The position numbers were made by a program, and so were the translations under genes. The notes under the pieces are model-generated. The model worked only from the letters and a program-made list of their open reading frames with translations. It was not told where the DNA came from and made no database searches. A stretch of DNA of 55,635 bases from an uncultured Candidatus Saccharibacteria bacterium (GTDB lineage: Bacteria; Patescibacteriota; Minisyncoccia; Phycocordibacterales; UBA9973): the NCBI GenBank assembly GCA_964439045.1, contig CAYTMO010000002.1, positions 1-55,635 on the forward strand, given 5' to 3'. Each line of letters opens with the position of its first letter. Positions within the stretch are counted from its first letter, which is position 1. Of the stretch, positions 20,980-49,968 are shown piece after piece.

Positions 20980-20990
20980 TAGCTTAAAAC

Positions 20991-21027
20991 AAAAACCCCT
21001 CGCTTACGAGCGAGGGGTTTTTGTTTT
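20991..21027. terminator. bidirectional intrinsic terminator
   Basis: AAAAA-CCCCTCGCT-tacg-AGCGAGGGG-TTTTT. Confidence 0.9.
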
Positions 21028-21039
21028 AAGCTTTTCTTT

Positions 21040-25958: not shown

Positions 25959-26040
25959 TGTGGCAAGAATGTAGCAAGAACAGTTCTTGCTACATTCTTG
26001 CCACAAGAGAATCTTTATTACTGCCTTTTGCTAGTCCACA
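25959..26040. repeat. palindromic repeat, copy B (47-nt perfect palindrome plus TTGCTAGTCC tail)
   Basis: 23-bp arms at 25959-25981/25983-26005. TTGCTAGTCC recurs as in copy A. Confidence 0.7.
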
Positions 26041-26132
26041 GAGCACTGTCTGGACACACCCTATAAAAAAATATATACTTACTAGTAAGCAAAGTGTGGT
26101 GTAAAAAGTCGAAGAATGTTGTTTAAAACTTG

Positions 26133-26245
26133 AGCAGAGAAAGTAATTGTGGACCCGACCAGAGTTGAACTGGCACTGCACATTTCTAAGACGGGCGTGC
26201 TACCTTTAACACTACGGGCCCTAAAGCTTATATTACTTTCTCTGC
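26133..26245. repeat. perfect 14-bp inverted repeat enclosing the tRNA-like gene
   Basis: GCAGAGAAAGTAAT at 26133-26146 and ATTACTTTCTCTGC at 26232-26245. Confidence 0.8.
26150..26221 (-). tRNA. atypical tRNA, anticodon UAG (Leu codon) with short variable loop
   Basis: Hand fold: GGGCCCG/CGGGTCC acceptor, GTGT/GCAC D stem, anticodon stem CCCGT/ATGTG (one C-U mismatch), loop CTTAGAA, 4-nt variable loop, T arm GCCAG-TTCAACT-CTGGT, A73. Confidence 0.65.
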
Positions 26246-26536
26246 TGGAATTTTAAACTATTTTATTTTCAAAAAAACTACCTCATAAGGATACCTACCT
26301 TTAAAAGTGCTTACTTTTAAAGGGTTATATAACATATTATACCTGCCATATAGAGTGTGAGCAAGTAATGCATCATAAAGTGTTATAATGGGGGTAATGT
26401 CAAACTTAAAAAATAAAAATGTAGTAAAAATAACGCTCTTTGGGACATTCAACGGGACAAATAAAGGGCATCTTATTTTTTTAAACAAGCAAAAAAGATA
26501 TCCACAAATTTTCTTTAGTGAGTTTTAAGAAATTAA

Positions 26537-31310: not shown

Positions 31311-31345
31311 ATTCCCTCACTTTATTAAGGTGAGGGAATTATTTT
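31311..31345 (+). terminator. intrinsic terminator overlapping the uvrC stop codon
   Basis: ATTCCCTCAC/GTGAGGGAAT 10-bp stem then TATTTT. Confidence 0.7.
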
Positions 31346-32664
31346 AAAAAATTCTTATTTCGTTTTTGTTTATGGAAATTAATAGCAAATCTATGAGACT
31401 CGGCGTTCAATGCTATTATTTCTTTTTTATACTTTTGAGCTATTGTAGTGTCTCCTAAAATTTCTCTGGCTTTATGTTTATCATCTTTTACCACTCCTAC
31501 AACTGGGATATTTAGTTTAAAATCTTGTAAAACTTTCTTAGCTACATTTACCTGCATAATGTTTCCATCTACTACTATCAAACTAGGTGTATGCCACTCT
31601 GTATGCTTAAATCTTCTTTCCAATACTTCTCGGAGCGCTCCTGTATCATTTGCATTTTGCTGACTTCTAATAATGAACTTTTTATATTCATTTTTTTCTA
31701 ATTCACCGTTTTTCGATACCACCATCACCCCCACCATATTCTGCCCAGACATATGAGCAATATCGTAAGCTTCTATTCTAAGAGTTGGATTAGCAAGACT
31801 TTTTCGAGCAGTGGTGCTGTGTAACAGAATATCCCGAGAAAAAGTCTTGCTGACAGAATCATCTTTAATCAAAGCCACATCATTAATATGCCCTAAAGCG
31901 AAAATCTGTCTTTTTATCTCCCCTGCTTTCTCAAATTCTTTTTGCTTTGCATACAATTTCATTTCTTTTTGCAAACTTTTTAAAATTGATTGCTTTTTGC
32001 CTTCAAAAAAAAGTTTTATGTTTTTGATATTTTTTAGCAAAATTTCTTTTTGTTCTGGAGCAAGTTTTATTTGTCTATAAAATTCATATGTTCCTTTGAC
32101 TTTAGACTTTTCATCCAAAAATGGAAATATCTTTCGTACTAATTCCAAAGCAGTTTTGAGTTGAGAACCATTGGGGAATGGGCCGTATATATTTGTGAAA
32201 GAAACAGGGAAATTTTTCGTCGCGTCGGAGCCCTTTAGGGTAAAATGCGAAAAATTTCCCTGTTTCTGTAACTCTTTGCCTCTCACTATCAAAACTTTCG
32301 GCAACTCTTCTTTGGTAATACAAACATAATTAAAGCTCTTATCGTCTTTTTCTTTTGTATTAAAGTATGGCTGGTATTTTTTAATTAAGCTCGCTTCAAG
32401 TATCAAAGCTTCTAGAACACTATCAGTTTCCTGCCATTTTATACTATTTGCTCTAAAAACCATTTCTAAAATTAGTGGCCCACGAGTTTCGATCAAATCT
32501 TTACTAAAATAACTTCGTACTCTGTCTTTCAGGCTTGTTGCTTTACCGACATATAACAACCCCCCACCTTTATAGCCCCCTTCGCCAAGCTTCGTTGGGC
32601 CAAGGAAAAAGTAAACTCCAGGTTTTTCTGGCAAATTAAATTTTTTAAAATCATTTAATTTCAT
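31339..32664 (-). CDS. uvrC: excinuclease ABC subunit C, short form without C-terminal (HhH)2
   Basis: GIY-YIG (PGVYFF...LLYVGKATSLKDRVRSYF), UVR motif (FEKAGEIKRQI), endonuclease domain ending HRFAINFHKQKR. 441 aa. Confidence 0.9.
   Translation of the reverse strand: MKLNDFKKFNLPEKPGVYFFLGPTKLGEGGYKGGGLLYVGKATSLKDRVRSYFSKDLIETRGPLILEMVFRANSIKWQETDSVLEALILEASLIKKYQPYFNTKEKDDKSFNYVCITKEELPKVLIVRGKELQKQGNFSHFTLKGSDATKNFPVSFTNIYGPFPNGSQLKTALELVRKIFPFLDEKSKVKGTYEFYRQIKLAPEQKEILLKNIKNIKLFFEGKKQSILKSLQKEMKLYAKQKEFEKAGEIKRQIFALGHINDVALIKDDSVSKTFSRDILLHSTTARKSLANPTLRIEAYDIAHMSGQNMVGVMVVSKNGELEKNEYKKFIIRSQQNANDTGALREVLERRFKHTEWHTPSLIVVDGNIMQVNVAKKVLQDFKLNIPVVGVVKDDKHKAREILGDTTIAQKYKKEIIALNAESHRFAINFHKQKRNKNFLK
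32200..32267. repeat. inverted-repeat-bounded in-frame element inside uvrC
   Basis: Perfect 20-bp arms AGAAACAGGGAAATTTTTCG/CGAAAAATTTCCCTGTTTCT. The core contains GTCGGAGCCC and GGGTAAAA. Confidence 0.8.
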
Positions 32665-32667
32665 AAA

Positions 32668-35394
32668 TTACTTTTTCTTTAGAACTTTCTTTAAATACTT
32701 GCCAGTGTAGCTGTTTGTATTATTTGCCACTTCTTCTGGTGTGCCTTTAGCAATCAACTTTCCACCATTTACTCCTCCCTCAGGACCAATATCTATAATA
32801 TAGTCAGAACACTTTACTATGTCTAAGTTGTGCTCAATCAATACAACTGTATTACCTTTGCTTACAAGCTGATTTAAAACTTCAAGGAGTTTTGCCACAT
32901 CATCATAATGCAATCCTACTGTAGGCTCGTCTAATAAGTAAATAGTCTTTTCTAAATGTGGACGATATAATTCACTAGAAATCTTTACTCTTTGTGCCTC
33001 ACCACCTGAGAGAGTGGTGGCAGATTGACCAAGCTCCAAGTATCCAAGACCCACATCCATAAGAGTCTTTAATCTATCTGAAATAGCCGGAATATCTTTG
33101 AAAAAAGTTAACCCTTCTTCTACAGTCATTTTCAAAACTTCATAAATATTTTTCTTTTTGTATTTTACTGTAAGAGTTTCCTTATCAAATCTTTTACCTC
33201 GACAAACATCACAAGTCACATACACAGTCGGCAAGAAATGCATTTCTACTGCTATCTCTCCATTGCCTTCGCAAGCTTCACATCTACCACCTTTTACATT
33301 AAAAGAAAATCTATTGGCCTTCCATCCACGAAAACGAGCTTCTTCTGTCTCAGCAAACAAATCACGAATATGAGTAAATGTCCCAGTATATGTGGCAATG
33401 TTACTTCTTGGAGTTCTGCCTATTGGAGACTGATCTATAAGAATTGCACGAGTTAAATACTCTGTACCAGTGAATGAAGCACAGTTAAATACTTGCGCTG
33501 TCCGGTATTTCCTCTCAAGTCTGCCTTGCAGATTTTTATATAAGATCTCATACATAAAAGAACTTTTACCTGAGCCAGAAACTCCGGTGATAGAAGTCAT
33601 CACGCCGAGCGGTACTTCTACATTCATATTCTCTATATTAAAAACTTTTCCTCCAACAATACGAAGCACACCTTTCGCTTCGCGTCTTTTCTCTGGAATT
33701 TCTATTCTTGCTTCTTCGCGAAGATACGCAAGTGTGCGAGAATTATTTGTATTCTTTTTTGCAGTAAGCAATTCATCAAGCCAACCTTGAGCAACGACGT
33801 CTCCTCCGTGCACTCCAGCCTTCGGACCAATGTCTACAATGTAATCCGATGCATAAATAGTATCTTCGTCGTGTTCTACTACTAAAATAGTATTTCCCAA
33901 ATCTCGCAAGTTAAGTAATGTTTTTATCAGTCTATCGTTGTCTCTCTGATGCAATCCTATCGTTGGTTCATCCAATACATAAAGCGCACCTACAAGCCTA
34001 GAACCTAGTTGTGAGGCAAGGCGTATGCGTTGCGCTTCTCCACCTGAGAGGGTGTTTGCTTTACGAGAAAGTTGCAGATAGTCGAGTCCCACATCAAGCA
34101 TAAAAAGAAGCCTTGCTTCTATCTCACGAACCACAGGTAATGAAATTTCTTTTTCTTGATCTGTAAGTTTTAAATTTTTGAAAAATTGATAGGCCTCTGC
34201 AATAGACAAAGATGCAAGGTCTAAAATATTTATTTTATCTTTTACTTCTTTTTTATTCTTAACACTTTTATTTTCTTTAGTATTTTTATTTTCTAAAGTA
34301 TTGCCAGTCAAAAACACATTCAATGCTTCTTTTCTAAGTCTTGCGCCATTGCAAGAATCACAAGGCTCATCCCCTCCGAAATACTTTGAACCCAAGCCGT
34401 TACAATCTGGGCAGGCACCATACGGAGAGTTAAAAGAGAAAAGTCTTGGCTCTACTTCTGGAAAAGAAAATCCATCATTCTTACAAGCAAACTTTGCAGA
34501 CATTACGAATTCTTCTGTACCTATTTTTATAGTTACCAATTGATCAGATTCTAAAAGAGACCTTTCAAGTGCTTCTGCAAGGCGCGCCCTGCTCGCATCT
34601 TTATTATCGACAAATTCGTGTACTAAAAAATGGTCTACTAAAATATCTATATTATGTGCTTTATTTTTAGAAAGGGTTATTTGTTCGCGCAGCTTTTTCA
34701 TCACACCGTCTAGGCGGATTTCTGAGAATCCTTTGCCGAGCAAGTCATATAGAAGCTGATAGTATTCTCCTTTGCGTCCACGAACAATTGGAGAAAAAAT
34801 ACTGATTTCTGTCTCATCCCATTCTACGCCCATTACTTTTCGTTTTTTATTTGCAGGAACTTGGGAAGCAAAATCCTGATCCGTGTCGGAGCCCGTCGGA
34901 TTTTGACGGGTAAAACGGGCAGAATTTTGCTTTCCAAGTTCTTTGATTTTCTCAAGTATAAAATTTAAAATTTCTTCATTAGAAAGTTTTTTAATTTCTT
35001 CGCCACATTGTGGACAATGCGGATGCCCAATACGAGCGTACATCACACGCATATAGTCATATATTTCAGTAATAGTAGCTACGGTAGAGCGAGGGTTGTT
35101 GGATCTTGATTTTTGATCTATAGAAATAGCTGGAGAGAGTCCCGTGATTTCATCTACATCGGGCTTGGGCATTTGATTTAGAAATTGTCTTGCATAAGAA
35201 GAAAGACTCTCTACATACCTCCTCTGCCCTTCGGCAAAAATAGTATCGAAAGCAAGAGAGCTTTTACCAGAGCCTGAGACGCCAGTAATAACCACCATTT
35301 TGTTTCGTGGCATTTCTACATTTATATTCTTCAAATTGTGCGTCCGTGCACCCCTCACTATGATGCTATCATGCTTGTTTAACTTTTCTTTCAT
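32668..35394 (-). CDS. uvrA: excinuclease ABC subunit A
   Basis: [34 protein letters not shown], two ABC modules and zinc modules. 908 aa. Confidence 0.97.
34857..34941. repeat. inverted-repeat-bounded in-frame element inside uvrA
   Basis: 18-bp arms GAACTTGGGAAGCAAAAT/ATTTTGCTTTCCAAGTTC (one G-T). The core has GTCGGAGCCC, a CCCGTC/GACGGG hairpin and GGGTAAAA. Confidence 0.8.
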
Positions 35395-35464: not shown

Positions 35465-37144
35465 ATGAAAGAAGATAGCCTTGAGCAAAGAAAGCCGGCA
35501 TCAAAACAAGAAATACAAAAGATAAAACAACAATCTAGAGATGAGCTGGCTGGAACTATCCGTGAATCTAGAAGAAACCGAGATGAAGAATTAAAAAAAC
35601 TCGAAGAAGCAAAAAAGAGATTTTTTAAATTTTTATCCCTACAAAAAGACAAACCAAAAACAATCATACAGGAAATAAAAAACAAAGAAGGCGCTACAAG
35701 AAGATTATTAAAAGAAGGAAAATACGAAATTGATTTACAGGAAAAACTTCTATTGAAAGAGAGGGAGCAAGTTTTATATTCAACTATTATTGAACCTTTA
35801 TCTAAAATAAAAAATCTAATCTTAGATTATGAAAATCGAGATGAAGTTAAATCAATCTCAAAAAACTTCAGTGAAGAAAATTTCAGAATCTTTATGTCTG
35901 AAAAAGACCCAAATGAGGTTGGAGCTATAATTATAAAAATATTCGACCTTCTAAAAACCTCTAAATACTCCGACGCTTTCTATCAAAAAATAATTAATCT
36001 TTCAGAAGATTATTTTGAAGAAATTGAAGCTTTCTTACCAAACAACTTTCATTCTTTTTACAATGCTGAATTTATAAACAATTTAGTAGGTGCTCAATCT
36101 TTCACAGAGGGAAACCTGCCGGATGAAAAAATAGTCGAGGCTATTAAAAGCTTTGAACCATATTACAAAGAACAGGTTTCTTGGCAACACAGATACTCAA
36201 AGTTATCAAGTTTAACAAACTTCATATTAATTAAAGGACCTGACAGCCTAAAGGAGTGGATGAAAGAACAAATAAAAAGCGAAATAGAAAAAGAAAACTT
36301 TTCTATTATACCTATATTTAATAATTTTGATGTAGGATCCTCTCTTGAACTTGAAAAGGTCTTTGAAGAAAATATTTTCCAATATACACAAAAAAGATTT
36401 AGCATATCCAAAGAAGACTTTTTCTCTGCAGGGCATTCAAACACGGAAATATACTGGTCCGAAAACTTAAAGACAATGTGTAACATAGAACGAAAAATTA
36501 CTGGTGGAGTAAAAAGGTTATTAAAAGATTACGGGATTCATGAGTTCAATCGTCACCCACAAAAAATATTGATAAATCAATTAAAAGAGGAAAGCGTGGA
36601 TAGACCTTACGGAGTTGTGATATATCCACACAGTGACCATAACAATAATTTTGATAAAAAAGATACTGTCTTTAAAAATTTTTATGAAAAAGATAAAAAA
36701 AATCGTCTATTAAAGGTATTTGAAGTTGGTAGTAATCATGATCTTTTAAAATACTTAATAAAACTAAAAAGAAAATACAAACACAAAATATCATATCTTA
36801 TACTAGGAGGGCATGGCAGTACGGAGGGAGTCGAATTTGCCGATATGTTTATGTCTTACAAAGCCGGTACAAGTCAAGGAGAGTTAACAAAAGATGTTTT
36901 AGATAAAAGAGAAAAAACTCTTAAAATGATATCTGAATTTTTTACTCCAGACGCGACCATAGTCCTTGTGTCTTGTTCTACAGGAGCAGAAGGAGGGTTC
37001 GGAAGTAAACTTAGAGATAAAATAAATTTAAGAGTGTTGGCTCCAAAAGAAGATAGTAATCTAAAAAAACTAGAATTCAAAGACGGGAAGCTCGAAGTTG
37101 AGTATAATGTAGAAAAAAATGTATTTAACAAAATAGAAGTATAA
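35465..37144 (+). CDS. hypothetical protein with coiled-coil N-terminus and C-terminal His/Cys (GHG...SCS) domain
   Basis: LILGGHGSTEG ... IVLVSCSTGAEGG resembles clan-CD or DUF4347-like dyad spacing. Inference only. Confidence 0.65.
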   Translation: MKEDSLEQRKPASKQEIQKIKQQSRDELAGTIRESRRNRDEELKKLEEAKKRFFKFLSLQKDKPKTIIQEIKNKEGATRRLLKEGKYEIDLQEKLLLKEREQVLYSTIIEPLSKIKNLILDYENRDEVKSISKNFSEENFRIFMSEKDPNEVGAIIIKIFDLLKTSKYSDAFYQKIINLSEDYFEEIEAFLPNNFHSFYNAEFINNLVGAQSFTEGNLPDEKIVEAIKSFEPYYKEQVSWQHRYSKLSSLTNFILIKGPDSLKEWMKEQIKSEIEKENFSIIPIFNNFDVGSSLELEKVFEENIFQYTQKRFSISKEDFFSAGHSNTEIYWSENLKTMCNIERKITGGVKRLLKDYGIHEFNRHPQKILINQLKEESVDRPYGVVIYPHSDHNNNFDKKDTVFKNFYEKDKKNRLLKVFEVGSNHDLLKYLIKLKRKYKHKISYLILGGHGSTEGVEFADMFMSYKAGTSQGELTKDVLDKREKTLKMISEFFTPDATIVLVSCSTGAEGGFGSKLRDKINLRVLAPKEDSNLKKLEFKDGKLEVEYNVEKNVFNKIEV

Positions 37145-37154
37145 ACAAATAATT

Positions 37155-37631
37155 ATGGAAACAATTGTAAAAAGTGAAAAAGAATATAAATTAGGAGATA
37201 GTGTGACTCAAAAAAATATAATAAGTTTTGCAATTACCAGCTTTGCTATCTCAAGAAATAAAATGGACGCACAAATCTTATTTGTGGATTGGTTTATTAA
37301 AAGTAAAGCAAGTCAGAATCTGGGCGAAAACCCCGCAGACAAAGTACTATCAATGTATGAAAAGGCAATGGATAATGAACACAAAAATGAAAGTGTTGCG
37401 CAAATAATGGAAGCTTTTAATAAAGTCCAAGCTCATAACACTGGGCCTTCTGGTAAAGATTATGTTTTATCAAATTTTACAAAAGATTTTGAACAAGCTG
37501 TGACAACTGTAAAAGAAAGCAGATACGCTGATAATGTATTATGGTTTAATCTTGGAGTTGATTCAATTAATGTATACAATATGTCAAGCAGAGAGTTTAT
37601 AAACGCAATTAGTCCTTTATTTACAAAATAA
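37155..37631 (+). CDS. hypothetical protein (158 aa)
   Basis: ORF 10 nt after the preceding gene. No motif recognised. Confidence 0.55.
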   Translation: METIVKSEKEYKLGDSVTQKNIISFAITSFAISRNKMDAQILFVDWFIKSKASQNLGENPADKVLSMYEKAMDNEHKNESVAQIMEAFNKVQAHNTGPSGKDYVLSNFTKDFEQAVTTVKESRYADNVLWFNLGVDSINVYNMSSREFINAISPLFTK

Positions 37632-37636
37632 TTGAT

Positions 37637-39868
37637 TTACTTTTCCATCCTCTCTCTCAACACCCCTATCTCATCCCTTAGTATGGCTGCAGTTTCAAAG
37701 TCGAGTTCTTTGACGGCTTTGTTCATTTCCTTTTCTTTAATTTTAATTATCTTTTCATAGACTAGGCTAGTCCTCTCTTCGTCGGACATATGGAGCTTCA
37801 CTTCGGTTACATTGCCATCTTTTGTTTTCTTTTTAGTTACTGTGCTTTTGTCTAATGCGAGCTCTTTTGCATAAGCTTTTTTAAATACTTCAAGATCAAT
37901 AGAAAGCTCTGCGTTCACTGCTTTGCCGTGCTCGCTCTCCATAGCTTCGGTAATGTCTTTTATATTTTTCAAAATTGTCTTTGGGGTGATGTTATGTTTT
38001 TTGTTATAAGCTAGCTGAGTATTCCTCCTCCTGATAGTCTCTTTCAAGGCGCGCTCCATCGAGCCAGTAATCTTGTCTGCATAGAGTATCACTCGCCCTT
38101 CGCTATTTCTCGCTGCACGGCCTATAGTCTGAATGAGGGCAGTCTCACTCCTTAGGAATCCTTCTTTATCAGCGTCGAGTATCCCAATAAGTGCTACTTC
38201 TGGCAAATCTAAACCTTCACGAAGAAGGTTGACTCCTACTAACACATCAAATTTCCCTTTTCTGAATTCGGTTAGAATTTTTATTCTGTCTATTGTCTTT
38301 ACATCACTGTGCAAATACTCTGACTTAATTTTCTTATCTTTCAAGTATACAGACAAATCTTCTGCCATCTTTTTCGTAAGTGTAGTCGCCAAAACTCTAA
38401 AACCTCTCTTGATTGTATTTTCTGTTTCTTTTATAAAATCTTGAATCTGGCCGGGGTAATTTGAGCTCTTCGAAATGTGTTCGGAAGAATCTCCGCTACG
38501 AACAGAACTATCTTGCCCTTCCAGGGCAGAATGCGAATCCTGGAGAACATCTTTCGAAGAGCTAGCAGCCACAGGTCGAACAATGGTCTCTGGATCAACT
38601 AGCCCTGTCGGACGGATGATTTGCTCTACTATCTGCTCACTTTCTTTTCTCTCTACATCGCTTGGGGTTGCACTAGTGTATACTACTTGCCCGATTCTCT
38701 TTTCAAATTCAGGATATTTCAAAGGCCTATTATCCTTCGCAGAAGGAAGACGAAAACCGTATTCCACAAGTGTGTTTTTGCGAGAAGCATCGCCTGCATA
38801 CATACCATTTAATTGAGGCAAAGTTACGTGTGACTCATCAATAATAGTTAAGAAATCAGGTTCTTTGTTTTTTGTATGAGGGAAATATGAAAGCAAAGTT
38901 TCTGGTGCTTCGCCCTCCTTCTTACCAGAGAGGTGTCTGGAATAATTTTCTATACCAGAGCAATACCCCACTTCTTTAATCATTGCCAAATCATAATTAG
39001 TTCTTCTTTTGATTCTTTCTGCTTCTAAGAGCTTTCCTTCTTTTTCAAAATATTTGAGCTGAGCTGCCAATTCCTTTTTTATATTTGCTAAAGCAATTTT
39101 AGTTTTTGAATCTTCGGTGATGAAATGCTTAGTCGGAAAAACATAAATATCTTTTTCTTCTGCTAAGATTTTTGAAGACACAGGATCCACTTTTAAAATC
39201 TCTGAAATCTTCCCTCCTGACATCTCAATGACGTACATAAAAGTATCAGACACAGGCACGAATTCTACTTTAGAACCAATAGAGCGAAACTGCCCGGAAG
39301 AAAGGTCTGCATTAGTCCTTTCAAAATGAATTTTGATTAAACTTTTCATTAATGTAGTCCTATCCATTTTCATTCCTACTGAGAGCTTAAGATTTTCTTT
39401 CTCATATTCTTCTGGTGAACCTAAACCATAAATACAAGAAACAGAAGCGACAATGATGACATCACGACGAGTAAGGAGGGCCTGAGTGGAAGCGTGGCGA
39501 AGGCGGTCTATTTCTTTGTTTATCTGCGCATCCTTTTCTATATAAGTATCAGAGACGGGCATATATGCTTCTGGTTGATAGTAATCATAATAAGACACGA
39601 AGTAATGCACCGCAGCATCAGGGAAAAATTCTTTAAACTCTTGTGCAAGTTGTGCAGCGAGAGTTTTGTTATGCGCTATTACAAGAGTAGGCTTGTTCCA
39701 CTTGGCTATGACATTTGCCATTGTGAAAGTCTTACCTGTACCTGTAGCACCGAGCAATGTCTGCTTTCGCATACCTTTTTCTAAGCCTTTCATAAGCTCC
39801 GAAATAGCCTTCGGTTGGTCCCCGGCTGGCTCGAATTTACTCTTCAATTTAAAAATACCTTCAGACAT
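37637..39868 (-). CDS. uvrB: excinuclease ABC subunit B with Ser-rich insertion
   Basis: GATGTGKTF, DESHVT, helicase C motifs and C-terminal UVR (FETAAILRDEI). 743 aa. Confidence 0.97.
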   Translation of the reverse strand: MSEGIFKLKSKFEPAGDQPKAISELMKGLEKGMRKQTLLGATGTGKTFTMANVIAKWNKPTLVIAHNKTLAAQLAQEFKEFFPDAAVHYFVSYYDYYQPEAYMPVSDTYIEKDAQINKEIDRLRHASTQALLTRRDVIIVASVSCIYGLGSPEEYEKENLKLSVGMKMDRTTLMKSLIKIHFERTNADLSSGQFRSIGSKVEFVPVSDTFMYVIEMSGGKISEILKVDPVSSKILAEEKDIYVFPTKHFITEDSKTKIALANIKKELAAQLKYFEKEGKLLEAERIKRRTNYDLAMIKEVGYCSGIENYSRHLSGKKEGEAPETLLSYFPHTKNKEPDFLTIIDESHVTLPQLNGMYAGDASRKNTLVEYGFRLPSAKDNRPLKYPEFEKRIGQVVYTSATPSDVERKESEQIVEQIIRPTGLVDPETIVRPVAASSSKDVLQDSHSALEGQDSSVRSGDSSEHISKSSNYPGQIQDFIKETENTIKRGFRVLATTLTKKMAEDLSVYLKDKKIKSEYLHSDVKTIDRIKILTEFRKGKFDVLVGVNLLREGLDLPEVALIGILDADKEGFLRSETALIQTIGRAARNSEGRVILYADKITGSMERALKETIRRRNTQLAYNKKHNITPKTILKNIKDITEAMESEHGKAVNAELSIDLEVFKKAYAKELALDKSTVTKKKTKDGNVTEVKLHMSDEERTSLVYEKIIKIKEKEMNKAVKELDFETAAILRDEIGVLRERMEK
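38464..38563. repeat. inverted-repeat-bounded in-frame element inside uvrB
   Basis: 12-bp perfect arms AGCTCTTCGAAA/TTTCGAAGAGCT, central palindrome TGCCCT-tcc-AGGGCA at 38514-38528, and TGCGAATCCTGGAG motif. Confidence 0.75.
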
Positions 39869-47508: not shown

Positions 47509-49968
47509 CTACTTCACCTCTCCAAAGTTATCCCCCGAGCCGTAGTGCACTATAAGTGGTATATCTGTTTTGTATTTTAAATATGACCTTGTAAGCACAC
47601 CCTCCATTGCTTCAGATATTACTTTTTCTGCTTTTGTGAGGACGGTTTCTTCTATCTCATAAACCAACTCATCGTGAATCTGGAGCATAAGATGTGTTTT
47701 GTCTAAAAGTCCAGCTTTCGCCAAGTCTTCTTCTGCATAGCGAATAGCGAGCTTGATGATGTCGGCTGTGGCTGTGCCTTGGACTGGTGCATTAATAGCA
47801 GTGCGCTCTGCCATACTTTTCAAGAATGGAAGCCTGGAGTTTATATTTGGGAAATATCTCCTTCTGCCGAAAAGTGTCTCCGTATAAGTATGCTTCTTGG
47901 CATATTCTTTAACACTTTCTAAATAATCCCTCACACCAGAGAATTGATTAAAGTAATTATCATAAAACTTCTGCGCTTCTTCGCGAGTACCACCCAAGTT
48001 CTTACGAAGCGCAGAGACTCCCATACCATAAATAATTCCGAAGTTTATAACTTTTGCTTTTCTTCGCATTTCACTATCTACCTTGTCTATCGGTACTCCA
48101 AAAACAAAAGACGCCACCCCTGCGTGAATATCCTTTTTATCTTTAAATATTTCTGTCATCTTTTTATCTCCAGAGAGCATAGCCACCACTCGGAGCTCTA
48201 TCTGAGAATAATCAAAAGCTACAATCTTGTGTCCTTTTTCTGCAATGAAACCATTTCGAATTCTTTTGCCTAGCTCTGTCTTGATAGGCAAGTTTTGCAA
48301 ATTAGGATCTTGAGAATTAAATCTGCCTGTCGTAGTCGCATTTTGCACAAATTTAGAATGGAGTCTGCCATCCTCGCCCACCATAGCTGGAATCACATCT
48401 ACATAAGTAGAAAGCAATTTCTGTAATTCTCTGTATGCCATTATTTCTGTGATTATTGGATTGTCTTCTTCGAGCTCTTCTAATACTGATATCTTGGTAG
48501 AGAGGTTGCCACTGGCGTTTTTCTTTTTGGTGTTTTTGATACCTATTTTTACAAACAAAACTTCACTTAATTGTTTTGGAGAATTAATATTGAATTCGCT
48601 ACCTGCCATTTTATAAATCTTTTTTGTAAGTTTGTCTAACTCTGTATGATATTCTTTAGATAAGTTTTTAAAATACTTTTGGTCTATCAGGATTCCGTGC
48701 TTTTCCATTTTGTCTATTATTGGTATTATTGGCTTTTCTATTTCTTCATAAACTTTTTCCAAATTGTCACCCTTTAATCTTCCAAATATGTATTCTTTAG
48801 CTGTTTTGAAATCTTTTGTTTTAGCGTAATTTAAAATATCTTCTAACTTTGGATTGGAAATATCAGAATTCAAAAGCCACAAAGCTATAGAAGTCTCGTG
48901 AAGCTCTTTTGGGTCTACGTCTTCAGTAATTTCTTGCGGATTCTGGAGTAAAGAATTCTGTGTGTCTGGTTGAGCCTGCTCTTTTTTAGAATGTTGTAGA
49001 GGTGTCCCTAAGACCTGCGGATTCTTTACTCCAGAATCCGAATTACCATTCCCAAAAAAGGTTTTAAGCCTTGAGAACAAACTACGAAATTCAAACTCTG
49101 TAAAAACTTTTTCTATCTTACTCAAGTCTGCATTCTCCCAAAATGTTTTTTCTGGAATTTTAAAATCAATTGGTGCATCTTTGCGAATTGTTGCTAATGT
49201 TTTAGAAAACAATGCTTCTTCTTCATTGTCTTTTATAAGTTCAAAAATTCTAGGGGTGATGCCAATATCTTTAAAGACTTTATTATCTTTTTCTTTTTTG
49301 AAAGTTTTATAAAGATTCTCAATAGTTTGAAATTTATTTATAAGAGTAGTCGCAGTCTTCTCTCCTATACCTTTGATACCAATTATGTTGTCAGATGTAT
49401 CCCCTCGGAGTCCTTTGTAATCTGGGAGAAATTCGGGCTTAAAGCCAAACCTTTCTACAACCTTTTCTTCATCATAAAGAATCGTATCTGTTATTCCTTT
49501 TTTCAAGGTATAAACTTGCACCTTTTTATCATCAATAAGTTGCATTGTATCCATATCACCAGATGCAATTATGATATTAATGCTTTTATCTTTTTTAAAT
49601 TGTTCTACTATCGTACCCAACACATCGTCTGCTTCAAATCCTGGTGCATCATAAATAGGGATATTAAAAGCTTCAAAAATCTTGCGAGAGCTAATAAGTT
49701 GAGAAATAAGTGCATCATCTGCTTTTACTCGACCAGCTTTATAAGCATCGTAAGCAATATGACGAAAAGTCTTTTGCGGTAGATCATAACAAGCCACAAT
49801 ATAATCAGGCTTCAAGTCTGCAATTATTTTCATCAACATATTAGATACACCATAAAGCGCGCCTGTGGGCTCCCCACCCGAAGACAAAAAATCTGGCAAT
49901 GCGTGATACGCACGATGAATAATCGCGTGAGCATCAAGAAGTACTAAAAGCTTAGGTTTGTCTTTCAT
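47509..49968 (-). CDS. polA: DNA polymerase I
   Basis: 5' nuclease N-terminus, DYSQIELRVVA and QIHDELVYE family-A motifs. 819 aa. Confidence 0.97.
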   Translation of the reverse strand: MKDKPKLLVLLDAHAIIHRAYHALPDFLSSGGEPTGALYGVSNMLMKIIADLKPDYIVACYDLPQKTFRHIAYDAYKAGRVKADDALISQLISSRKIFEAFNIPIYDAPGFEADDVLGTIVEQFKKDKSINIIIASGDMDTMQLIDDKKVQVYTLKKGITDTILYDEEKVVERFGFKPEFLPDYKGLRGDTSDNIIGIKGIGEKTATTLINKFQTIENLYKTFKKEKDNKVFKDIGITPRIFELIKDNEEEALFSKTLATIRKDAPIDFKIPEKTFWENADLSKIEKVFTEFEFRSLFSRLKTFFGNGNSDSGVKNPQVLGTPLQHSKKEQAQPDTQNSLLQNPQEITEDVDPKELHETSIALWLLNSDISNPKLEDILNYAKTKDFKTAKEYIFGRLKGDNLEKVYEEIEKPIIPIIDKMEKHGILIDQKYFKNLSKEYHTELDKLTKKIYKMAGSEFNINSPKQLSEVLFVKIGIKNTKKKNASGNLSTKISVLEELEEDNPIITEIMAYRELQKLLSTYVDVIPAMVGEDGRLHSKFVQNATTTGRFNSQDPNLQNLPIKTELGKRIRNGFIAEKGHKIVAFDYSQIELRVVAMLSGDKKMTEIFKDKKDIHAGVASFVFGVPIDKVDSEMRRKAKVINFGIIYGMGVSALRKNLGGTREEAQKFYDNYFNQFSGVRDYLESVKEYAKKHTYTETLFGRRRYFPNINSRLPFLKSMAERTAINAPVQGTATADIIKLAIRYAEEDLAKAGLLDKTHLMLQIHDELVYEIEETVLTKAEKVISEAMEGVLTRSYLKYKTDIPLIVHYGSGDNFGEVK
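48937..49040. repeat. inverted-repeat-bounded in-frame element inside polA
   Basis: Perfect 20-bp arms CGGATTCTGGAGTAAAGAAT/ATTCTTTACTCCAGAATCCG. 10-nt direct repeat TGCGGATTCT at 48935 and 49016, exactly 81 nt apart. Confidence 0.8.

Follow-up and report, generated by a model that had tools for sequence, protein, structure and literature searches.

The DNA analysed here, referred to as the window, is the whole of a 55,635-nt stretch (positions 1 to 55,635 of contig CAYTMO010000002.1, assembly GCA_964439045.1) from an uncultured bacterium deposited as Candidatus Saccharibacteria and placed by GTDB in the Patescibacteriota (Minisyncoccia, Phycocordibacterales, UBA9973). The subject is a long palindromic element that lies in frame within the uvrC gene of this window, the related element in the neighbouring uvrA gene, and the repeat family, here called family A, to which both belong. 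The features concerned are the following:

31339-32664, minus strand: uvrC, a 441-aa open reading frame (ORF) with Pfam matches to GIY-YIG, UVR and UvrC_RNaseH_dom
32195-32272, described on the plus strand: palindromic element of family A within uvrC, 78 nt long (26 codons)
32200-32219, top strand: 5' arm of the uvrC element, AGAAACAGGGAAATTTTTCG, perfect complement of 32248-32267
32220-32247, top strand: 28-nt core of the uvrC element, TCGCGTCGGAGCCCTTTAGGGTAAAATG
32248-32267, top strand: 3' arm of the uvrC element, CGAAAAATTTCCCTGTTTCT, perfect complement of 32200-32219
32668-35394, minus strand: uvrA, 908 aa
34857-34941, top strand antisense to the gene: family-A element in uvrA, with its core at 34885-34917

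The elements in uvrC and uvrA

The perfect 20-bp arms around a 28-nt core at 32200-32267 are, letter for letter, those given by the first-pass annotation, a reading made from the sequence without database searches, and translation agrees with its statement that the stretch encodes QKQGNFSHFTLKGSDATKNFPVSF. The inverted repeat extends outwards to 32195-32219 and 32248-32272 (25 nt, 92%, two mismatches), and from the outside in the element consists of outer GT/AC pairs, a GAA/GTA purine loop, the 20-bp arms and the core, which is made up of TCGC, GTCGGA, a hairpin GCCC-TTTA-GGGT, and AAAATG. Within the core, the tag CGTC occupies 32223-32226 and the two boxes that recur throughout the family, GTCGGAGCCC and GGGTAAAA, occupy 32224-32233 and 32238-32245, respectively. 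The top strand, that is the strand carrying GTCGGAGCCC, is antisense to the gene, and the coding strand is free of stop codons. The window has a GC content of 31-39%, and at ~35% GC the estimated number of chance occurrences of perfect 20-bp inverted repeats within 120 nt is ~3e-5 per window. The fold of the plus strand has z = -6.8 against shuffled sequences, with 0/200 shuffles as good, and z is about -6 to -7 on either strand. The covariance model R1 of the family matches the uvrC element over 32191-32277 with 76.3 bits (E = 4.9e-15).

That the stretch is an insertion relative to orthologues, as had been proposed by comparison with UvrC of B. subtilis and E. coli, is borne out by an alignment of 24 Paceibacteria UvrC proteins, 10 of which have no insert at this site and run from ...NLIKE directly into NYSKVYGPFPNG. 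The same alignment contains several sites with variable palindrome-like peptides, present or absent by sequence. The closest orthologues of the window UvrC are proteins named Nomurabacteria, Paceibacterota, Paceibacteria or Patescibacteria, and the 120 closest range in length from 396 to 503 aa.

The uvrA element has a core with a longer apical stem (GCCCGTC-GGATTTT-GACGGGT) and is matched by R1 with 62 bits (E = 9.6e-12). Its insert lies inside a 44-residue stretch that is aligned to a 2-residue turn of the solved UvrA 9gxk, and its translation is the peptide that had been reported for it. The earlier claim that it shares the motifs of the uvrC element in order and orientation also stands, as GTCGGAGCCC ... 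GGGTAAAA on one strand has two matches in the window, in uvrC and uvrA, against 0 expected from 100 shuffles.

A multi-copy family in Patescibacteria

A scan of one genome per species with the pattern GTCGGAGCCC-N(3-20)-GGGTAAARYG returned at least 119 loci with the family-A core (this and the following counts for family A are among the matches listed), and paired arms of 10-30 nt (median 19) stand beside ~104 of the 128 core matches listed. The first-pass annotation had made its proposal depend on further copies in the genome and on shared motifs above background frequency; more copies do exist, and the shared motifs lie far above background. Every armed copy listed comes from a record whose title names Patescibacteria (Nomurabacteria, Paceibacterota, Nealsonbacteria, Taylorbacteria, Minisyncoccales, Parcubacteria) or reads 'uncultured Candidatus Saccharibacteria', and core matches in other phyla are armless and are read as chance. 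Two assemblies contain at least six copies per genome. Many of the 'uncultured Candidatus Saccharibacteria' records with family A are third-party annotation (TPA) assemblies, among loci L014-L132, and at least one UvrC from these records (L046) is closely similar to Paceibacteria UvrC; such titles may be generic labels and not true placements.

Orthologues that carry a peptide at this position of uvrC keep the inverted repeat at the DNA level in the cases checked (L002, L003 and L046). The apical loop has few variants, namely TTTA, CCGTAGAGA, GCTTGC, GTCGGATTTTGAC and AGTACTCT. Rfam 15 has no match to family A at gathering thresholds, and the best sub-threshold hit is a microRNA hairpin (E = 0.39). 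Carriage on viral contigs was considered and rejected, as the 10 core matches found there include none with long paired arms, lie on contigs of 47-65% GC and are read as chance. A connection of GTCGGA with an MmeI-type site (TCCRAC) or with DNA uptake is likewise unlikely, given 8 and 5 occurrences in the window outside the elements against 5-6 expected. In one locus (L029, 4999-5375), two family-A copies in opposite orientations lie ~300 nt apart within a single 1305-nt ORF.

Fold, covariation and strand asymmetry

Family-A elements are 70-100 bp long and, read on the top strand, share one nested architecture. Outermost is an outer helix of 3-6 bp, which also covaries, followed inwards by a 3x3 purine-purine loop (GAA/GAA or GGA/GGA), a main helix of 15-30 bp that is free in sequence and kept in pairing, a short CGY/GCG helix, an invariant asymmetric loop in which GUCGGA stands opposite AAA, and a GC-rich apical hairpin GCCC...GGGU. 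When 101 distinct copies were aligned in one register, anchored on the core, standard pairs occupied 93.7% of cells, compared with 68% after shuffling and 32-53% after sliding by 1-3 columns, and each of the 18 arm pairs shows changes on both of its sides. Adjacent to the core, 57 copies have a U.G pair and 40 a C-G pair, which is the alternation of TGTC and CGTC.

The mismatches in the arms are asymmetric, with 61 G.T on the GTCGGAGCCC strand and 13 A.C. The ratio is 31:3 in intergenic copies, 26:10 in genic copies with the top strand antisense and 4:0 in those with the top strand sense. One-sided G.T mismatches imply that pairing has been kept on one specific strand, as expected for folded single-stranded DNA or RNA, and deamination biases would predict the opposite asymmetry.

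Positions in and between genes

With a genic copy defined as one that is stop-free and in frame in an ORF of at least 450 nt, 64/104 armed copies are genic and 40/104 lie outside long ORFs. The top strand is antisense in 53 of the 64 genic copies, which are then read as RFTLKGSD or ALPSLRGLRHG, and sense in the other 11, which are read as VRVGAPVERVKR. Among the 40 intergenic copies, 17 are interrupted by stops in every one of the six frames. Intergenic copies occupy short spacers and are typically 8-16 nt past a stop codon, and relative to co-directional neighbours their top strand is antisense in 20 cases and sense in 6. The idea that these copies split genes and need splicing was rejected, as the flanking ORFs are distinct genes, for instance groES and groEL.

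The host proteins of 61 genic copies were tabulated, including vertically inherited orthologous sites, so that the following counts are not independent events:

UvrC: 11 copies
Class I tRNA synthetases: 7 copies
UvrA: 5-6 copies
LigA: 5 copies
RNase HII: 5 copies
PheRS beta: 3 copies
MnmA: 3 copies
Pseudouridine synthase: 3 copies

In the filled and empty sites that were compared, the inserts lie in A/T-rich, poorly conserved linkers coding for Lys and Asn. The bias towards repair, replication and tRNA enzymes may most simply reflect that such enzymes are long multidomain proteins with tolerant linkers.

Gain, loss and recurrence of copies

A sister contig (L001) that is ~90% identical to the window differs from it at both sites. 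In uvrA the whole element is missing, a difference of 72 nt, and in uvrC a 42-nt deletion has removed the inner 5' arm and the core and left the 3' arm, which is a partial deletion and not an empty site. Presence/absence polymorphism between relatives, which the first-pass annotation had suggested looking for, is seen at the uvrA element, and partial loss at the uvrC element. The uvrC element is common to the same site in orthologues of ~60% identity; from this sharing, and from the partial deletion in place of an empty site in the sister contig, the uvrC copy is an old one and no recent insertion. As a separate difference between the two contigs, uvrB and uvrA are adjacent in L001, and in the window two plus-strand ORFs (559 aa and 158 aa) stand between them at 35465-37631, a two-gene insertion or deletion between close relatives.

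More distant genomes vary in both parts of the element. At the uvrC site, L002 has the same core with completely different perfect arms, and L003 has arms like those of the window with compensatory changes around a different GC-rich core. Near-identical elements, including their arms and shared mismatches, occur with unrelated flanks within and between genomes, and they cease to be alike at about GTGAAGCAG...CTGYGGAACGAT. Between filled and empty orthologous sites the net difference is ~72-78 nt, and the element ends are semi-conserved (GYGRA-GCAG...CTGC-GRARC). Among lineages, the sites in UvrC, UvrA, LigA and MnmA carry different core variants in both orientations; the UvrA element, for example, is antisense in the window and sense in L121.

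Comparison with described palindromic repeats

The likeness to in-frame Rickettsia palindromic elements (RPE) that the first-pass annotation had drawn holds, as family A is multi-copy, is found in frame in genes as well as between them, and has near-identical copies at non-orthologous loci. RPE are likewise short multi-copy palindromes in frame in housekeeping genes and in intergenic positions, with no transposase known for either group, and their host genes in Rickettsia conorii, including uvrB, dnaE and pseudouridine synthase, overlap with those of family A (Ogata et al., cited in PMC3733652 and PMC10969869). Family A differs in phylum and sequence and in its conserved centre with long, hypervariable, covarying arms, and no membership in RPE is claimed.

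The repetitive extragenic palindromic (REP) superfamilies are tagged by an unpaired GTAG or CGTC/TGTC, and the CGTC class has no dedicated transposase (Di Nocera et al., 2013, PMC3733652). The CGTC/TGTC superfamily includes RPE-4 and RPE-6 of Rickettsia and dRS3 of Neisseria, and its intragenic copies are found notably in uvrA, uvrB, uvrC, polA, ligase, tRNA synthetase and pseudouridine synthase genes (PMC3733652). Family A resembles this class in having an unpaired tag 5' of a hairpin rich in GC (of 101 copies, 40 have C and 57 have T at alignment column 46, followed by an invariant GTC), in having no known dedicated transposase, in its position just downstream of ORFs and in its host-gene bias. 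The described CGTC units are 20-40 bp long, with a stem of 8-9 bp that starts with A-T right after the tag, a loop of 4-5 nt and a short unpaired CCA-like tail, and they frequently form head-to-head dimers (PMC3733652). In contrast, family A has a GGA spacer after the tag and a GCCC/GGGT stem of 4 bp (6-8 bp in some variants), a loop that is TTTA in 46/103 copies and longer in the rest, an AAA(G) tail, and a single unit nested in arms of 15-30 bp and an outer helix, for a total of 70-100 bp. A further difference, from REP systems with a RAYT transposase, is that no RayT-like gene was detected in ~1 Mb of flanking DNA (best tblastn E = 2.4). Family A works like RPE and REP elements, yet its stem, tail and unit size do not fit the definitions of the families described so far, and membership in any of them is not claimed.

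Transposable elements of the miniature inverted-repeat type (MITEs) that overlap ORFs include QMITE1/2 of Coxiella (PMC5896051), the Correia elements of Neisseria and ERIC of enterobacteria. MITEs share with family A that they are non-autonomous hairpin-forming repeats, some of them within ORFs; some MITE copies lie in 3' untranslated regions (UTRs), and MITEs can yield small RNAs. They have conserved terminal inverted repeats, direct repeats of the target and often a related insertion sequence. The ends of family A are semi-conserved, and neither a readable target repeat nor a related insertion sequence was found at the sites and loci covered. Coding palindromes in the mitochondria of Nematomorpha are also long perfect inverted repeats translated within conserved genes; they are mitochondrial and reach 284 bp, and the abstract of that source mentions no shared core or dispersed copies (PMC6649704).

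A literature search found no paper describing such elements in Patescibacteria, and to this extent the earlier suggestion that they are undescribed for this kind of genome stands; it does not extend to the gene set, as repeats in the same genes have been described in other phyla (PMC3733652). New are the phylum and the architecture, while palindromic repeats within repair and tRNA genes as such are already described.

Interpretation

Family A is a multi-copy element that occurs at non-homologous loci and has been gained, lost and partly deleted between relatives. The uvrC hairpin is probably, in our judgement, a copy of a non-autonomous REP/RPE-like palindromic repeat that acts as a folded single strand and has spread through Patescibacteria of the Paceibacteria/Parcubacteria group. 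Under this explanation, a folded single-stranded DNA or RNA would be the form in which family A spreads, or once spread, and a putative trans-acting factor would recognise the conserved core as its handle. Within genes, the only survivors would be in-frame, stop-free insertions in permissive loops, where they would be translated as loops of roughly 24-28 residues, and slippage from arm to arm would delete copies. We infer both that a trans-acting factor mobilises the single strand and that the inserts are translated as surface loops.

Several points weigh against this explanation. The copies were collected by an exact core pattern, and the invariance of the core is therefore partly by construction; a covariance search added only ~7 variant cores (among them GTAGGGCCCC and the type of L003, GTGGGACCC...GGGAGGAGTG). 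Conservation is far stronger in the core than in the arms, the opposite of what a typical transposon shows and a pattern that would suit a host function as well. No direct repeat is readable at five or six comparisons of filled and empty sites; the flanks at the empty sites are all 20-25% diverged, for which reason a target-site duplication cannot be read. A tblastn search with E. coli RayT against the ~1 Mb of element-flanking Patescibacteria DNA mentioned above gave nothing better than E = 2.4 at the sensitivity of BLAST, and no transposase or partner gene stands between paired copies in the fetched loci, where the ORFs are housekeeping genes (infB, dnaB and a methyltransferase). Vertical inheritance at one site accounts for many copies, which are old and give no support for present-day mobility, and translation of the inserts is predicted from their open frames.

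Part of this evidence would suit a structured nucleic-acid module selected by the host in place of selfish DNA, either an RNA (antisense, in a 3' UTR or in an operon spacer) or a signal in single-stranded DNA. Its purine-rich asymmetric loop would bind a protein concerned with mRNA stability or processing, replication or repair, and the genic copies would be tolerated by-products. The near-invariance of the core across distant lineages with covarying arms, the limitation of G.U-type tolerance to one strand, the two purine-rich internal loops (GAA/GAA and GUCGGA/AAA) and the intergenic copies 8-16 nt after stops inside operons such as groES/groEL, oriented 20:6, all favour such a module, and REPs elsewhere are thought to act as RNA elements (PMC3733652). 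However, the strand that keeps its pairing is antisense to the surrounding genes in ~80% of copies and is thus not the mRNA strand, no Rfam family matches, close relatives have freely lost or shortened copies, and site occupancy among orthologues is patchy (9/120 UvrC proteins). We regard a host module as unlikely on balance.

It is very unlikely that the elements are intervening sequences removed from RNA or protein, which would leave mature UvrC and UvrA without them. Patescibacteria are known for insertions in rRNA genes, and a long, stable, conserved structure within essential genes would be in keeping with removal. But all genic copies lack stops and preserve the frame, as would be needless if they were spliced, they occur in both orientations within genes, and copies closed in every frame lie exclusively between genes, flanked by separate genes; with 24-28 residues and no conserved peptide across frames, the inserts are also too small for an intein.

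More improbable still is a local and independent origin of each hairpin by template switching (snap-back replication), without any common element. In its favour, the arms are perfect and differ among sites, and at uvrC and uvrA the net insertion (57-72 nt) is smaller than the full palindrome (78-85 nt). Against this, the same core of 20-24 nt recurs ~100 times among the matches listed, whole elements including their arms are near-identical at unrelated loci, and 10-mers of the arms are no commoner in their own flanks (8 matches) than in unrelated control flanks (6 matches). The arms are thus not derived from nearby host DNA, which removes this alternative. A lineage-specific protein loop kept for its peptide, with incidental palindromy, is hardly credible: RFTLKGSD does recur in several proteins, but two antisense frames and one sense frame of the same DNA yield unrelated peptides (RFTLKGSD, ALPSLRGLRHG and VRVGAPVERVKR), the element also lies between genes, and conservation is at the level of nucleotides and base pairs.

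Other hairpins in the window and a second family

The window contains four further palindromes in repair and replication genes:

38464-38563, in uvrB (37637-39868, minus strand): palindromic element assigned to family B, stop-free and in frame
48937-49040, in polA (47509-49968, minus strand): hairpin with 20-bp perfect arms, stop-free and in frame, R1 score 20 bits, assigned to neither family
31792-31851, in uvrC: second in-frame hairpin, immediately upstream of the RIEAYD motif, with perfect arms of 14 bp, assigned to neither family
~32584-32600, near the UvrC N-terminus: GC-rich mini-palindrome coding for LGPTKLGEGG

The first-pass annotation had counted the hairpins in uvrC, uvrA, uvrB and polA as four related elements. 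This holds for uvrC and uvrA, which form one family (76 and 62 bits), and a single family for all four was rejected, as R1 has no match in uvrB and gives the polA hairpin a generic hairpin score. On the sense strand the core of the uvrB element reads TGGAAGGGCAAG..TCTG.TCGTAGCG and shares ~80% identity over 60 nt with an insert found in the UvrC of another genome. The uvrB hairpin is kept in the sister contig at 93% identity, and a peptide signature of its type is present in 3/120 UvrC proteins, at two sites. A metagenome scan for the core pattern gave 15 matches with variable, paired arms, of which 14 are genic, in UvrB (two sites), PolA, UvrA, UvrC and one KsgA-like gene. By its sequence, the uvrB hairpin is to be assigned to a second, related repeat family (family B). 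Families A and B have a common module on the same strand, GCCC-loop-GGGYARAAKGCG, the shared part being the 3' half of the core only, and the arm mismatches of family B are biased 12:2 towards the strand equivalent to that of family A.

The two families could, as a tentative and rather doubtful extension, be versions of one single-stranded module that is selected on one strand, usually antisense to genes, and that would be either the recognition site of a new type of hairpin-dependent mobility system that has no RAYT-like enzyme or a signal of the host connected, in Patescibacteria, with genome-maintenance and tRNA genes. The module in question has a hypervariable, obligatorily paired stem, two purine-rich internal loops and the invariant GUCGGA/AAA loop over a GC hairpin.

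The site of the window polA hairpin is the PolA site of family B in other genomes, and L002 has yet another palindrome there. The second uvrC hairpin is kept in the sister contig, and at its site other genomes have family A, family B or the L003-type core. Peptides of the type LGPPKRxEGG, similar to that of the N-terminal mini-palindrome, are found in 8/120 of the closest UvrC orthologues and are missing from one that is 88% identical (P0003). A BLAST search with the polA, second uvrC and N-terminal palindromes against ~1 Mb of Patescibacteria loci had no match other than the orthologous copy of the sister contig. A further type of repeat, encoding SPRSDLKGSRGPTS, lies near the UvrC C-terminus in several genomes (L133, 10001-11353; UvrC proteins P0008, P0012, P0014 and P0042), and its DNA contains two copies of the palindrome GAGGTCGGACCTC, again with GTCGGA.

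Implications

The very small genomes of Patescibacteria, which are ultra-small bacteria known from uncultivated forms, thus carry at least two palindromic repeat families in essential repair, replication and tRNA enzymes. Such inserts help to explain much of the odd length variation of conserved proteins in this phylum, as in the UvrC proteins of close relatives (396-503 aa), and they matter for gene calling, alignment and phylogeny. The host-gene bias of REP and RPE in Proteobacteria (uvrABC, polA, ligase, tRNA synthetases and pseudouridine synthase) recurs here in an unrelated phylum, and is therefore a repeatable pattern in need of a cause. Family A also provides ~100 natural variants of one fold with strand asymmetry, from which the active form, DNA or RNA, and its recogniser are testable.

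Additional features of the window

A tRNA-Leu(TAG) gene at 26149-26221 (minus strand) lies within 36-nt inverted repeats (26112-26147 and 26232-26267), which form a helix of ~25 bp around the tRNA (z = -5.2). The arrangement is like a processing stem, an unusual feature for a tRNA of bacteria. Two perfect intergenic hairpins with loops of 1-4 nt, at 20981-21032 (24 bp) and 25959-26005 (23 bp), are probably bidirectional terminators, unrelated to family A beyond being hairpins. Positions 1479-1599 are a full-length match to the Rfam LOOT RNA, with 82.9 bits against a gathering score of 46.4.

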